The notes beneath the pieces were generated by a model that was not told the DNA's origin, did not search any database, and saw only the letters and a list, made by a program, of their open reading frames with translations. Made by a program: the position numbers and the translations under genes. Of a stretch of 64,000 nt of DNA, positions 12,158 to 19,064 are shown piece by piece. The stretch is from NCBI RefSeq assembly GCF_046105845.1, contig NZ_CP151004.1; one strand, given 5' to 3'. This DNA comes from Escherichia coli (GTDB taxonomy: Bacteria > Pseudomonadota > Gammaproteobacteria > Enterobacterales > Enterobacteriaceae). Each line of letters opens with the position of its first letter. Within the stretch, counting starts at the first letter, position 1.

Positions 12158-12190
12158 GAAACAGCGGCTGGTCCGCTGTTTCTGCATTCT
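12158..12190 (+). terminator. Candidate hairpin terminator downstream of yeaY
   Basis: 10-bp perfect stem GAAACAGCGG/CCGCTGTTTC with a 5-nt loop just after the yeaY stop; weak U tract; coordinates approximate. Confidence 0.4.
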
Positions 12191-12340
12191 TACGGTAAAG
12201 ATAAAAATAAATAGTGACGCGCTTCGCAACCTTTTCGTTGGGTAATTATCAAGCTGGTATGATGAGTTAATATTATGTTAACGGCATGTATATCATTTGG
12301 GGTTGCGATGACGACGAACACGCATTTTAGAGGTGAAGAA

Positions 12341-14026
12341 TTGAAGAAGGTTTGGCTTAACCGTTATCCCGCGGACGTTCCGACGGAGATCAACCCTGAC
12401 CGTTATCAATCTCTGGTAGATATGTTTGAGCAGTCGGTCGCGCGCTACGCCGATCAACCCGCGTTTGTGAATATGGGGGAGGTGATGACCTTCCGCAAAC
12501 TGGAAGAACGCAGTCGCGCGTTTGCCGCTTATTTGCAACAAGGGTTGGGGCTGAAGAAAGGCGATCGCGTTGCGTTGATGATGCCTAATTTATTGCAATA
12601 TCCGGTGGCGCTGTTTGGCATTTTGCGTGCCGGGATGATTGTCGTAAACGTTAACCCGTTGTATACCCCGCGTGAACTTGAGCATCAGCTTAACGATAGC
12701 GGCGCATCGGCGATTGTTATCGTGTCTAACTTTGCCCACACTCTGGAAAAAGTGGTTGATAAAACTGCTGTTCAGCACGTTATTTTGACCCGTATGGGCG
12801 ATCAGCTATCTACGGCAAAAGGCACAGTAGTCAACTTCGTTGTTAAATACATCAAGCGTCTGGTGCCGAAATACCATCTGCCAGATGCCATTTCATTTCG
12901 TAGCGCCCTGCACAACGGCTACCGGATGCAGTACGTCAAACCCGAACTGGTGCCGGAAGATTTAGCTTTCCTGCAATACACCGGCGGTACCACTGGTGTG
13001 GCGAAAGGCGCGATGCTGACTCACCGCAATATGCTGGCGAACCTGGAACAGGTTAACGCGACCTATGGTCCGCTGTTGCATCCGGGCAAAGAGCTGGTGG
13101 TGACGGCGCTGCCGCTGTATCACATTTTTGCACTGACCATTAACTGCCTGCTGTTTATCGAACTGGGTGGGCAGAACCTGCTTATCACTAACCCGCGCGA
13201 TATTCCAGGGTTGGTAAAAGAGTTAGCGAAATATCCGTTTACCGCTATCACTGGCGTTAACACTTTGTTCAATGCGTTGCTGAACAATAAAGAGTTCCAG
13301 CAGCTGGATTTCTCCAGTCTGCATCTTTCCGCAGGCGGAGGGATGCCTGTTCAGCAAGTGGTGGCAGAACGTTGGGTGAAACTGACTGGACAGTATCTGC
13401 TGGAAGGTTATGGCCTGACCGAGTGTGCGCCGCTGGTCAGCGTTAACCCGTATGATATTGATTATCATAGCGGTAGCATCGGTTTGCCGGTGCCATCGAC
13501 GGAAGCCAAACTGGTGGATGACGACGACAACGAAGTACCACCGGGTCAACCGGGTGAGCTTTGTGTCAAAGGACCGCAGGTGATGCTGGGTTACTGGCAG
13601 CGTCCGGATGCTACCGATGAAATCATCAAAAATGGCTGGTTACACACCGGCGACATCGCGGTGATGGATGAAGAAGGATTCCTGCGTATTGTCGATCGCA
13701 AAAAAGACATGATTCTGGTTTCCGGTTTTAACGTCTATCCCAACGAGATTGAAGATGTCGTCATGCAGCATCCTGGCGTACAGGAAGTCGCGGCTGTTGG
13801 CGTACCTTCTGGCTCCAGTGGTGAAGCGGTGAAAATCTTCGTAGTGAAAAAAGATCCATCGCTTACCGAAGAGTCACTGGTGACCTTTTGCCGCCGTCAG
13901 CTCACGGGCTACAAAGTACCGAAGCTGGTGGAGTTTCGTGATGAGTTACCGAAATCTAACGTCGGAAAAATTTTGCGACGAGAATTACGTGACGAAGCGC
14001 GCGGCAAAGTGGACAATAAAGCCTGA
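12341..14026 (+). CDS. fadD: Long-chain fatty acid-CoA ligase
   Basis: Track ORF 12275..14026; start set to in-frame TTG ([14 protein letters not shown]) giving the remembered 561-aa FadD; AMP-binding motif [12 protein letters not shown]. Confidence 0.9.
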
Positions 14027-14046
14027 GCGTTAAGTCAGTCGTCAGA

Positions 14047-14071
14047 CGCCGGTTAATCCGGCGTTTTTTTT
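14047..14071 (+). terminator. Rho-independent terminator of fadD
   Basis: Stem CGCCGG/CCGGCG with loop TTAAT followed by a run of 8 T, about 20 nt after the fadD stop. Confidence 0.6.
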
Positions 14072-14095
14072 GACGCCCACTAAAGAGAATACAAT

Positions 14096-15223
14096 TTGAA
14101 TTACCAAATGATTACCACGGACGATGCGCTGGCTTCTTTGTGTGAAGCCGTCCGTGCCTTTCCGGCGATAGCCCTGGATACTGAATTTGTTCGTACGCGC
14201 ACTTATTACCCGCAGCTGGGGTTGATTCAACTTTTCGATGGCGAGCATCTGGCGCTAATCGATCCACTCGGGATCACCGACTGGTCACCGCTGAAAGCGA
14301 TCCTGCGCGATCCGTCCATCACAAAATTTCTCCATGCAGGCAGTGAAGATCTGGAAGTGTTCCTCAATGTCTTTGGCGAATTACCACAACCCCTGATTGA
14401 CACGCAAATCCTTGCTGCCTTCTGCGGACGCCCGATGTCATGGGGTTTCGCTTCCATGGTGGAAGAGTATTCCGGCGTTACGCTGGACAAGAGTGAATCG
14501 CGCACCGACTGGCTGGCCAGACCGCTGACCGAACGTCAGTGTGAATACGCAGCGGCGGATGTCTGGTATCTGTTACCGATCACCGCAAAGCTTATGGTAG
14601 AAACGGAGGCCTCCGGCTGGCTACCTGCGGCGCTGGATGAATGCCGCCTGATGCAAATGCGTCGTCAGGAAGTCGTTGCTCCGGAAGATGCCTGGCGTGA
14701 TATCACCAATGCCTGGCAGTTACGCACACGCCAACTGGCCTGTCTGCAACTGTTAGCCGACTGGCGACTGCGCAAGGCTCGGGAGCGCGATCTGGCAGTG
14801 AACTTTGTCGTGCGTGAAGAGCATTTGTGGTCCGTAGCGCGTTATATGCCGGGAAGTTTAGGCGAACTGGACAGCCTGGGCTTATCCGGTAGCGAAATCC
14901 GCTTTCACGGTAAAACGCTGCTGGCGCTGGTGGAAAAAGCGCAGGCATTGCCGGAAGAGGCCTTACCGCAGCCGATGCTTAACCTGATGGACATGCCGGG
15001 TTATCGTAAAGCGTTTAAAGCGATTAAGTCGTTGATTACTGACGTGAGCGAAACGCACAAGATCAGCGCCGAATTGCTGGCATCGCGTCGGCAAATCAAC
15101 CAACTGCTGAACTGGCACTGGAAACTGAAACCGCAGAATAATTTGCCGGAGCTGATTTCCGGCTGGCGTGGTGAGCTGATGGCGGAAGCATTACACAATT
15201 TATTGCAGGAATATCCGCAGTAA
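14096..15223 (+). CDS. rnd: Ribonuclease D
   Basis: 375-aa ORF beginning MNYQMITTDDALASL; initiation codon is TTG. Confidence 0.9.
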   Translation: MNYQMITTDDALASLCEAVRAFPAIALDTEFVRTRTYYPQLGLIQLFDGEHLALIDPLGITDWSPLKAILRDPSITKFLHAGSEDLEVFLNVFGELPQPLIDTQILAAFCGRPMSWGFASMVEEYSGVTLDKSESRTDWLARPLTERQCEYAAADVWYLLPITAKLMVETEASGWLPAALDECRLMQMRRQEVVAPEDAWRDITNAWQLRTRQLACLQLLADWRLRKARERDLAVNFVVREEHLWSVARYMPGSLGELDSLGLSGSEIRFHGKTLLALVEKAQALPEEALPQPMLNLMDMPGYRKAFKAIKSLITDVSETHKISAELLASRRQINQLLNWHWKLKPQNNLPELISGWRGELMAEALHNLLQEYPQ

Positions 15224-17453: not shown

Positions 17454-19064
17454 TCAGTTGTCGCCTTTGAATACGGTTCCCGCAGGGAGCACTGGCGTTT
17501 TTTCCAGGACTTCAACCGGTGTCTGCGGGAGATAATGTTCAACTTGATGAGCCGGAATGTCGGCGTAATCCTGTTTCAGCCAGCGAATAAATCCGCCGAC
17601 TTTCACCAGTAAAATGACGAGGAACGGAAGGGCTGTGAGTACGACGGTGGTTTTCATCGTTTCCAGCGACGCGCCAGTGAAAAGAATTGAAAGCGGGATC
17701 AGGGTAATTACCACGCACCAGAAAAGACGCAGCCCACGGTCAGGATCGTCACCTTCCTGGAGATTACGCGTACTGGTTGCCGCCATGGTGTAGGCCACCG
17801 CATCCATATGCGAGGCAAGGAAAATAATCATCACGCCCAGGTATGCGGCGAGGAATAATTTACCGGCTGGCAACGACATCAGAACTTGCTGCACAGCTGT
17901 CTCGCCGCCCAGTGTTTCCAGCACCTGTGGGACGTTGATTACGCCATTGATAAACTGGTGAATGGCATAGCTTTCCATTACGCCGAAGAAGAACCAGCAA
18001 CCGACGGTGCTGCCGAGGATCAGTCCCCAGATAACTTCTTTAATCTTACGACCGCGCGAAACGCGGGTGACAAACATTGCTACGCCAGGCGTGTATGAGA
18101 TCCACCACAGCCAGTAGAAAACGGTCCAGTTGCGGGTAAATGAACCATCGCCAAGCGGATCGGTGAATAAGCTCATTTGCAGGAAGTTTTGCGTGGTCAG
18201 GCCGATGGCATTGATGATGCTGTTGGTAATAAATTCGGTTGGACCGACAATCAGCACCAGTAATGGCAGCAGGAACGCGCCCCAGCCAACCATTTTGCTC
18301 AGACGTTGCAAACCGTTGTTGATACCAATCCACGAGCTTAGGCAAAAAATGCCGCCGGAAAGCAGGATCACAAATGCCTGCACGGTGAAGTTATCGGGTA
18401 AACCGGTCAGCGCGGAAAGCCCACGAGTAAAGGTTGCTGCGGTAACAACAAGGGAAATGGTCAGCGCACCGACAGTGGCGATCAGGAACATCAAATCGAC
18501 CAGTTTTCCCCACGGGCCTTGCGGGCGAACGCCGGTAATCGCGGCAATAATCCCGGAAAGACTCAGACCTTTGTTTTTCCGCACATGAAAGTGATAAGCC
18601 ATGATTAATGAGGCCAGCGTATAAGTTGCCCAGGCGCTGATGCCCCAGTGGAAGAAGGAGTAAGGGACGCTAAATTCGAGTGCCTGTTGTGAACGCGGTG
18701 CGATATTTAATCCAGGTGTTTGATAATAATAGGCCCATTCAGCAACCCCCCAATAAAGCGTAGAAGAACCTAAACCGGCACAAATAAACATAAACAGCCA
18801 GGAGAGCGTGCTGTATTCCGGTTTTCCTTCGCCAAGACGAATATTGCCGTATTTACTGGTGGCTAAATAAATCACCAGTCCCATTGCCAGCAAAACCAAT
18901 ACCTGTACGGCGGAACCTAACGTACGCGTAACAAAAGTGTATATTGCGTTGGCCGCGTCGGCCGATTGTTGTGGGAAAAGGCTTAATGCAGCTGCGATGA
19001 AAAGAATGGCCACCAGGCTGATGCTTATCAGCGGCACATCTTTTTTCTTAACATTGCTCATCAT
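17454..19064 (-). CDS. yeaV: BCCT-family transporter (betaine/carnitine/choline type)
   Basis: 536-aa polytopic ORF; AGGAGA 6 nt upstream of the ATG; resembles CaiT/BetT; exact annotated start not verified. Confidence 0.8.

Follow-up and report, generated by a model that had tools for sequence, protein, structure and literature searches.

Within the 64,000-nt stretch of the Escherichia coli chromosome analyzed here (the window), the neighboring genes fadD and rnd very probably each use a genuine UUG codon as translation start, and both codons are conserved throughout the order Enterobacterales. Conservation, annotation, and sequence anatomy were assessed in this analysis, with a comparative set of 80 Enterobacterales species; the transcription start, UUG usage, and the translational enhancer were taken from the literature. 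For fadD, the start region consists of TTG (12341–12343) followed by AAG AAG GTT TGG CTT AAC CGT TAT (KKVWLNRY), and the gene length in the curated K-12 record NC_000913.3 (1686 nt, 561 aa) places the start at this TTG, as does the PGAP annotation of four RefSeq E. coli genomes. The position is occupied by TTG in 75/80 species and by GTG in the remaining five, with CTN or TTA in none, and thus lacks the mixture of leucine codons expected of an internal site. Codon-position entropy was 0.19 / 0.08 / 1.17 downstream of the TTG as compared to 0.78 / 0.63 / 1.03 upstream; strong purifying selection sets in exactly at TTG 12341. Residues 1 to 560 of the TTG-initiated form align with profile positions 1 to 560 of 561 in the NCBIfam FadD equivalog model NF006523, a full-length match of 1172 bits (cutoff 884). 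A Shine-Dalgarno sequence precedes the TTG in every one of the 80 species, being GAGGTG or AGGAGT in most loci and a GGGAG or GGAGT variant in the others. Several lineages lack any in-frame start upstream of the TTG, and in two codon −6 is a stop.

Black et al. reportedly described fadD in 1992 (J Biol Chem) as encoding a 561-aa acyl-CoA synthetase with a TTG start, transcribed from 60 bp upstream and carrying two FadR operators. The locus in the window is the same one: both FadR operators, the sequence of the CRP-site probe (12195–12242), and the 60-nt leader match those of PMC3460868, and the strain is ∼98% identical to K-12 over a 2.3-kb query of this locus. The Shine-Dalgarno sequence and TTG lie inside the published transcript, which starts at ∼12281 (PMC3460868). 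Likewise, fadD belongs to the EcoGene genes whose starts were verified by N-terminal sequencing, and its true site lies 11 codons 3′ of the one a predictor had chosen (PMC1805508). The initial annotation had thus placed the fadD start correctly, but its statement that no in-frame start other than TTG 12341 yields the complete N terminus does not hold, as the frame also contains ATG 12308 (−11 codons) and ATG 12275 (−22 codons). TTG 12341 is better described as the start at which protein-level conservation of FadD begins.

The rnd start region, TTG (14096–14098) followed by AAT TAC CAA ATG ATT ACC ACG GAC GAT (NYQMITTDD), exhibited a comparable pattern. Curated NC_000913.3 lists rnd with 1128 nt (375 aa), which places the start at the TTG. 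Among the 80 species the position is TTG in 76, GTG in three, and CTA in one, the CTA locus having an ATG one codon upstream; here too, the mixture of leucine codons expected of an internal site is absent. Residues 2 to 4 are Asn-Tyr-Gln in most of the 80 species and are otherwise replaced conservatively (Asn to Thr or Lys; Gln to Thr, Ser, His, or Met), their codons carry synonymous changes, and codon 5 is variable. The protein chain of PDB entry 1YT3 has 375 residues and begins MNYQ, NCBIfam model PRK10829 aligns to residues 1 to 375 of the 375-residue product, and the RNase D equivalog NF008089 gives a full-length match of 752 bits (cutoff 516). A review likewise lists rnd as starting at UUG and as having a U-rich translational enhancer (PMC7769764). 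Upstream of the TTG lies only a weak AAGAGA at a distance of 7 nt (−2.9 kcal/mol), the AGAGA core of which recurs there in most of the 80 loci. The start proposed initially for rnd is therefore borne out, as are the seven GTG starts inferred for other genes in the window, all of which match curated K-12 (Table 1).

Table 1 Features of the fadD–rnd region and GTG starts elsewhere in the window. Positions are those of the 64,000-nt window.
Feature	Position	Strand	Basis
Distal FadR operator of the fadD promoter, GGCTGGTCCGCTGTTTC	12166–12182	+	Sequence; matches FadR-site probe of PMC3460868
Proximal FadR operator, AGCTGGTATGATGAGTT, directly 5′ of the −10 box	12252–12268	+	Sequence; FadR sites described in PMC3460868
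−10 region (TAATAT / TATTAT), overlapping ATG 12275–12277	12268–12277	+	Published transcription start
G-run GGGG (12299–12302) and in-frame ATG (12308–12310), 11 codons 5′ of fadD TTG; possible minor 572-aa start	12299–12310	+	Conservation; weak TetRP signal
fadD Shine-Dalgarno GAGGTG, 5 nt before TTG	12330–12335	+	−7.1 kcal/mol
fadD coding sequence, 561 aa, UUG start	12341–14026	+	Curated K-12 and PGAP annotation; conservation
sroD small RNA (Rfam RF00370), last fadD codons and terminator hairpin	13985–14070	+	115.2 bits, E 1.4e-22
fadD intrinsic terminator hairpin (14044–14066) and run of 8 T (14064–14071), within the rnd leader	14044–14071	+	Terminator scan
Weak Shine-Dalgarno-like AAAGAGAA 5′ of rnd TTG	14082–14089	+	−2.9 kcal/mol
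rnd (RNase D) coding sequence, 375 aa, UUG start	14096–15223	+	Curated K-12; PDB; NCBIfam; conservation
ATG at rnd codon 5, PGAP start (371 aa), internal Met codon	14108–14110	+	Conservation; no Shine-Dalgarno
manX GTG start, at window edge	39	−	Matches curated K-12
yoaA GTG start	8852		Matches curated K-12
leuE GTG start	21553		Matches curated K-12
dgcP GTG start	24597	−	Matches curated K-12
mipA GTG start	35840		Matches curated K-12
ydjF GTG start	47461		Matches curated K-12
ynjF GTG start	63742		Matches curated K-12

Alternative starts were weighed for both genes. The longest fadD ORF begins at ATG 12275, its first ATG, and encodes 583 aa, 22 codons more than the TTG form; an in-frame ATG at codon −22 is also found in many Escherichia, Citrobacter, and Kosakonia loci. 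However, Feng and Cronan (2012; PMC3460868) placed transcription initiation of fadD 60 bp 5′ of the start codon, corresponding to ∼12281 here, and ATG 12275 therefore falls at approximately −6 to −4 and is not part of the fadD mRNA. The −10 box TATTAT (12271–12276) directly follows the proximal FadR operator, the core of which (ACTGGTA-N4-GAGTT) is kept in most related loci among those listed, and is overlapped by the ATG. The 583-aa ORF is thus an annotation artifact, since its ATG is inside the −10 element of the promoter. This ATG also has no Shine-Dalgarno sequence (−2.8 kcal/mol), the NF006523 match to the 583-aa form begins only at residue 23 with no gain in score, the frame is broken by indels between codons −22 and −11 in Enterobacter and other genera, and this ATG is the fadD start in neither the curated K-12 nor the PGAP annotation. 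Initiation at ATG 12275 therefore has next to no likelihood, and the 583-aa form can be regarded as effectively refuted, in agreement with the initial annotation, which had suspected an over-extension of 22 codons. Tracks, whether older or automatic, that show the 583-aa fadD are off by this number of codons. Elsewhere in the promoter region, the distal FadR operator overlaps an inverted repeat behind yeaY, reported by the terminator scan as a terminator-like repeat on the − strand (12183–12157), and a consensus promoter scan returned a single alternative promoter-like site (12267–12296), for which literature support was not found.

For rnd, PGAP places the start at ATG 14108 in 4/4 RefSeq E. 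coli genomes, two of which share one protein accession, so that the TTG would be upstream noncoding sequence; the match to TIGR01388, which begins at residue 5 of the rnd product, is consistent with this shorter form. However, codon 5 is not ATG in 24/80 species (TTG, CTG, ATA, TTT, TAC, or TTA), eight of which carry a codon that is not normally a start, and species without this ATG keep the upstream TTG or GTG, the sole exception again being the CTA locus with its adjacent upstream ATG. Retention of Asn-Tyr-Gln or close variants at residues 2 to 4 despite synonymous changes, the absence of a Shine-Dalgarno sequence before ATG 14108 (+0.4 kcal/mol), the UUG start stated in the literature (PMC7769764), and the 375 residues of the crystallized protein likewise argue against a start at codon 5, which is accordingly very improbable. 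ATG 14108 is an internal codon and the PGAP start is four codons too late. PGAP is the NCBI pipeline annotating most RefSeq genomes, and its error at rnd is opposite in direction to the over-extension of fadD.

The remaining in-frame ATG of the fadD leader, at 12308, bears on a possible addition to the UUG start rather than a replacement of it: fadD might have two in-frame starts, the main UUG (561 aa) and a conserved AUG that either initiates a minor 572-aa form or loads ribosomes reading through the UUG region. An ATG is found exactly 33 nt upstream of the start position in 70/80 Enterobacterales loci, within the motif GGGG-YTGYG-ATG-ACG-ACG-AAY, and its G-rich element has a pairing energy to the 3′ end of 16S rRNA of −5.4 kcal/mol. 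Indels between ATG 12308 and the TTG were found in Chimaeribacter only, although they do occur farther upstream, and in-frame stops in this interval were found in 0/50 unique sequences, whereas shuffled sequences gave 18 on average and never fewer than 9. Variation in the stretch after the ATG exhibits mild three-base periodicity. The ATG is the preferred site of the Hon-yaku predictor (PMC1805508) and is listed by tetracycline ribosome profiling (TetRP) as “alt-N’(new)” with 572 aa. RNA structure does not account for the conservation, as the leader is unstructured: RNAalifold predicts no pairs, and the leader folds worse than 200/200 shuffles (z = +2.34). On the other hand, the TetRP signal at this ATG is 4.04 in a table whose lowest entries are ∼2.7, the intervening peptide shows little conservation (entropy 0.78 and 0.63 at the first and second codon positions), the Shine-Dalgarno-like element stands close to the ATG (∼3–5 nt), and the verified N terminus of FadD in EcoGene is that of the UUG form (PMC1805508). 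The ATG is dispensable, since it is lost in 10/80 loci (several Yersinia, Rahnella, Rouxiella, Edaphovirga, and Edwardsiella) and is out of frame in Chimaeribacter, where a stop stands at codon −6. Moreover, the conservation counts are not independent because the sequences share phylogeny.

Given the lack of in-frame stops after AUG 12308 and the weak ribosome-profiling signal, this codon may yield a minor 572-aa form of FadD. Two in-frame starts in fadD are a tentative reading, and it is similarly conceivable, if rather doubtful, that AUG 12308 with its own G-rich element is an evolutionarily maintained second start, giving rise to the minor form or acting as a ribosome-loading site that modulates the weak UUG. 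Among dual-start genes known from ribosome profiling (TetRP; Nakahigashi 2016), the fadD ATG at −33 appears as a new alternative N terminus in Table S5. As compared to the dual-start genes of TetRP and Ribo-RET (Meydan 2019), fadD has its main start at the downstream, weaker codon, and its second start is putative. Ribosome-profiling or N-terminal proteomics records for either UUG were not found in the datasets searched: neither the Ribo-RET preprint nor the TRAINSPOTTER paper on N-terminal proteomics (text and searched supplements) contains a fadD or rnd entry, and the TetRP supplement has no rnd entry, its sole fadD entry being the ATG at −33.

The fadD terminator and sroD lie in the leader of rnd. 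The sroD match, above the Rfam gathering threshold of 50, covers the last fadD codons and the terminator hairpin, which is conserved in related loci, and the run of 8 T ends 24 nt before the rnd TTG. Among the loci listed, the longest U-run in Enterobacteriaceae comprises 5 to 8 T and ends 23 to 30 nt before the rnd TTG in nearly all, whereas in Yersiniaceae and Erwiniaceae it is shorter (mostly 3–5 T) or interrupted and lies farther from the TTG. A promoter for rnd was not detected at the thresholds of the consensus promoter scan. Zhang and Deutscher (1988 Nucleic Acids Res, 1989 J Biol Chem, 1992 PNAS) reportedly described the UUG start of rnd, a GC-rich hairpin ahead of it, and a U8 stretch acting as translational enhancer. 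The window contains the same locus without biological difference, as the TTG, the hairpin, and the 8 T were all found; added here are the conservation of the start over 80 Enterobacterales species, the identity of the hairpin with the fadD terminator and the 3′ end of sroD, and the loss of four codons in PGAP. The U-run of the rnd leader is the U-rich translational enhancer of PMC7769764, which cites Zhang and Deutscher 1992.

The initial annotation had also implied that it is meaningful for the two UUG genes to be neighbors. One such reading would be a shared regulatory logic, for example coordinated translational down-tuning of a fadD-rnd unit. Gene order is kept in 80/80 loci, the start codons are TTG in 75/80 (fadD) and 76/80 (rnd), and the rnd leader holds the fadD terminator and sroD, all of which would fit such a unit. 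However, the functions are unrelated (fatty-acid activation as compared to tRNA 3′ processing), the initiation sites differ greatly, with a strong Shine-Dalgarno sequence for fadD and a weak one for rnd, and a terminator stands between the genes. At TTG start frequencies of 1.9 to 3% over roughly 4300 genes, a genome should hold ∼1.6 to 3.9 such TTG-TTG neighbor pairs by chance alone, and the adjacency therefore does not exceed chance. The upper frequency used was 3%. The lower, 1.9%, was taken from PMC1805508. A functional tie is thus highly unlikely and was rejected on these four grounds; the adjacency is coincidental, with no link between the starts. A third TTG start nearby, that of yeaV in the K-12 annotation, is not a genuine UUG gene in this strain, in which the ORF extends to ATG 19064 (536 aa); the K-12 form of yeaV lacks ∼225 bp relative to the ORF in the window.

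The two UUG codons sit in distinct settings. In fadD, transcription is controlled by FadR, CRP, and ArcA, and the UUG follows a ∼60-nt unstructured leader with GAGGUG 5 nt 5′; given this strong Shine-Dalgarno sequence, the UUG is a weak start codon in an otherwise good initiation site. In rnd, the UUG is coupled with the weak AAGAGA, and ∼24 nt 5′ of it are the hairpin of the fadD terminator and the 8 U, the U-run, according to the literature, being an enhancer needed for rnd translation (PMC7769764); the predicted net outcome is low, translationally limited synthesis of RNase D. Down-tuning by UUG, as initially suggested, fits reporter measurements in which UUG expression was 6 to 8 times below that of AUG or GUG (PMC3592434), and we infer that selection keeps UUG to hold expression low.

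Both UUG starts are already known from decades of literature and from the curated K-12 annotation. As they are long published and annotated, the finding is correct but ordinary; it matters little in itself, these being textbook-level facts and rnd the classic case of a UUG start with a U-rich enhancer. The rnd gene is shortened by four codons in the PGAP annotation of the four RefSeq E. coli genomes, which the comparative data could correct. To our knowledge, the conserved upstream in-frame AUG is absent from discussion of fadD in the literature, apart from one line of the TetRP supplement. This AUG is a cheap, testable dual-start candidate, and, if the second start is real, fadD would be a conserved dual-start gene across Enterobacterales.

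The 2.3 kb surrounding the fadD and rnd starts have a match in 5425 of 5426 complete E. coli genomes, with 99.3% identity to strain 1190 and ∼98% to K-12, whose minus strand corresponds to the window plus strand with the gene order yoaA-tsaB-yeaY-fadD-rnd-yeaX unchanged. KKVWLNRY is encoded directly after TTG 12341–12343 in fadD and NYQMITTDD directly after TTG 14096–14098 in rnd, and both genes carry a TTG start in the curated K-12 record (NC_000913.3; fadD, 1686 nt, 561 aa; rnd, 1128 nt, 375 aa). An internal leucine would draw freely on the other five leucine codons. Across 80 Enterobacterales loci having fadD followed by rnd, obtained by a scan with one genome per species, the codon aligned to 12341 is TTG in 75 and GTG in five, and none of the other five leucine codons is ever present at this position. 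In these loci the fadD start codon is preceded at 5 to 7 nt by a Shine-Dalgarno sequence, either GAGGTG, AGGAGT, or a variant of the GGGAG type; several Yersiniaceae have no in-frame start upstream of the TTG position, and in Chimaeribacter codon −6 is a stop. Codon-position entropy shifts abruptly at the TTG, from 0.78/0.63/1.03 over the 10 codons upstream to 0.19/0.08/1.17 downstream. The NCBIfam FadD equivalog alignment covers the 561-aa form from residue 1; on the 583-aa form it starts at residue 23, and the score does not rise. Initiation of fadD at UUG 12341, as proposed in the initial annotation, is thus backed by curated K-12, by the 80-locus comparison, and by the NCBI RefSeq annotation pipeline (PGAP), which uses 12341 in all four RefSeq genomes checked.

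The longest fadD open reading frame (583 aa) opens at ATG 12275, which overlaps the −10 element. Transcription starts 60 bp before the start codon, at ∼12281 (Feng & Cronan 2012, PMC3460868; the probe sequences match the window), downstream of this ATG, which therefore lies outside the fadD mRNA. It has no Shine-Dalgarno sequence (pairing energy to the 16S rRNA 3′ end of −2.8 kcal/mol versus −7.1 for TTG 12341), and its frame is disrupted in other genera by indels between −22 and −11. On these grounds the 583-aa form was rejected, and the 22-codon extension is an over-extension, as had been suspected. TGTTA-N6-TGTAT direct repeats lie across the transcription start (12276–12291, plus strand), in place of which many other Enterobacteriaceae have TGTTAAC-N4-TGTTTAT; we take the repeats to resemble an ArcA- or PhoP-type direct-repeat operator.

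A second upstream candidate, ATG 12308, lies 11 codons before the TTG and follows a G-run (12299–12310 together). Of the 80 loci, 70 have an ATG exactly 33 nt upstream of the TTG position, in the motif GGGG-YTGYG-ATG-ACG-ACG-AAY, although it is absent or out of frame in 10. No conserved RNA structure accounts for its conservation, and from this ATG to the TTG the aligned set is free of indels save a 1-nt deletion in Chimaeribacter. In-frame stops in this interval occur in 0 of 50 unique sequences versus a shuffle mean of 18, a difference that is suggestive only, as the sequences are related. The codon appears in the supplement of Nakahigashi et al. 2016 as a new alternative fadD N-terminus (572 aa), with a weak tetracycline ribosome profiling signal (TetRP 4.04, CmRP 0), and the Hon-yaku predictor ranks it above the verified site (PMC1805508). 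However, the peptide encoded between the ATG and the TTG is poorly conserved, and the verified N-terminus is that of the UUG form. Genuine use of ATG 12308 in vivo as an additional start is therefore considered possible but doubtful; it may give a minor 572-aa form of FadD beside the product initiated at UUG 12341.

In rnd, 76 loci have TTG aligned to 14096, three have GTG, and one, Edwardsiella ictaluri, has CTA, with an ATG one codon upstream. Residues 2 to 4 are mostly N-Y-Q and elsewhere conservative variants (e.g., T-Y-Q, N-Y-T, K-Y-Q), with synonymous changes in their codons (aat/aac, tat/tac, caa/cag). PGAP starts rnd at ATG 14108–14110 (371 aa) in four of four RefSeq E. coli genomes checked. 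This fifth codon is TTG, CTG, ATA, TTT, TAC, or TTA in 24 of the 80 loci and lacks a Shine-Dalgarno sequence (+0.4 kcal/mol), whereas the TTG is preceded by AAGAGA, weak (−2.9 kcal/mol) yet conserved. Both PDB 1YT3 and NCBIfam PRK10829 use the 375-residue form, and a UUG start with a U-rich translational enhancer is described for rnd mRNA in a 2020 review citing Zhang & Deutscher 1992 (PMC7769764). Codon-5 variability, Shine-Dalgarno data, the 375-residue records, and the literature together show that PGAP cuts four codons from rnd, a truncation that looks systematic (four of four genomes). ATG 14108 was rejected in favor of TTG 14096, the start initially proposed, on which curated K-12, PDB 1YT3, the comparative data, and PMC7769764 agree.

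Features at the fadD promoter and in the rnd leader (window coordinates)
Feature	Position	Strand	Remark
Proximal FadR operator	12252–12268	+	directly before −10 element
−10 element TAATAT / TATTAT	12268–12276	+	overlapped by ATG 12275–12277
sroD small RNA	13985–14070	+	Rfam RF00370, 115 bits; last fadD codons and fadD terminator
Intrinsic terminator hairpin	14044–14066	+	3′ of fadD stop
Run of 8 T	14064–14071	+	ends 24 nt before rnd TTG

Given the overlapping coordinates, a single element terminates fadD, forms the 3′ end of sroD, and supplies the rnd leader with its hairpin-plus-U8. Among the loci listed, hairpin and U-run lie 23 to 30 nt before the rnd start in Enterobacteriaceae; Yersiniaceae, Erwiniaceae, and Pectobacteriaceae have a U-run that is shorter or broken and more distant, and keep AAGAGA plus TTG.

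TTG opens ∼3% of annotated E. coli genes. It makes up 1.9% of N-terminally verified starts (PMC1805508) and 10 of the 688 in an N-terminal proteomics set from 2026; ∼1.6–3.9 adjacent TTG-TTG pairs are expected by chance per genome of ∼4300 genes. The fadD and rnd initiation sites differ in build, a terminator lies between the genes, and no functional link between the two UUG starts was seen.

Elsewhere, 61 K-12 gene starts mapped to the window include nine GTG and three TTG; manX, a GTG start at the window edge, was confirmed separately. All seven GTG starts put forward initially, manX among them, coincide with curated K-12 starts, and three curated GTG starts were absent from that list (sdaA 5155, minus; nudL 5917, minus; ynjH 63010, plus). 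The start region of K-12 ynjI has no match in the 64-kb window. yeaV is a 536-aa open reading frame here (17454–19064, minus; ATG 19064, AGGAG Shine-Dalgarno). The dmlA-yeaV region is ∼225 bp shorter in K-12, so the curated K-12 TTG (window 18899) belongs to a 5′-truncated gene; the full form is present in ∼2900 of 5426 E. coli genomes, and the three listed partial matches, at 52% coverage, seem to carry the K-12 deletion. The topB-gdhA interval is ∼2.8 kb longer than in K-12. Within it, an Hsp70-like frame (571 aa, 57729–59444, plus) overlaps a 649-aa frame (59426–61375, plus) with an apparent J-domain plus Sel1 repeats, both assigned by eye.

Protein sequencing is reported to have confirmed both N-termini (fadD, Black et al. 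1992; rnd, Zhang & Deutscher 1988), and RNase D reportedly rose when the rnd UUG was replaced by AUG. In a matched reporter system, expression from UUG was 6 to 8 times below that from AUG or GUG (PMC3592434, citing Zhang & Deutscher 1989, on rnd, as earlier start-codon-effect work). The fadD leader is unusually unstructured (z = +2.34), and together with the strong Shine-Dalgarno sequence this would offset the weak UUG; in rnd, with weak codon and weak Shine-Dalgarno sequence, the U-rich enhancer would be needed for translation. The initial observation and interpretation of the two UUG starts are correct, yet already known; useful by-products are the annotation corrections for the 583-aa fadD and 371-aa rnd forms and the lead on the fadD upstream AUG. 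Retention across the order suggests that selection may preserve UUG at the two starts so that expression stays low.
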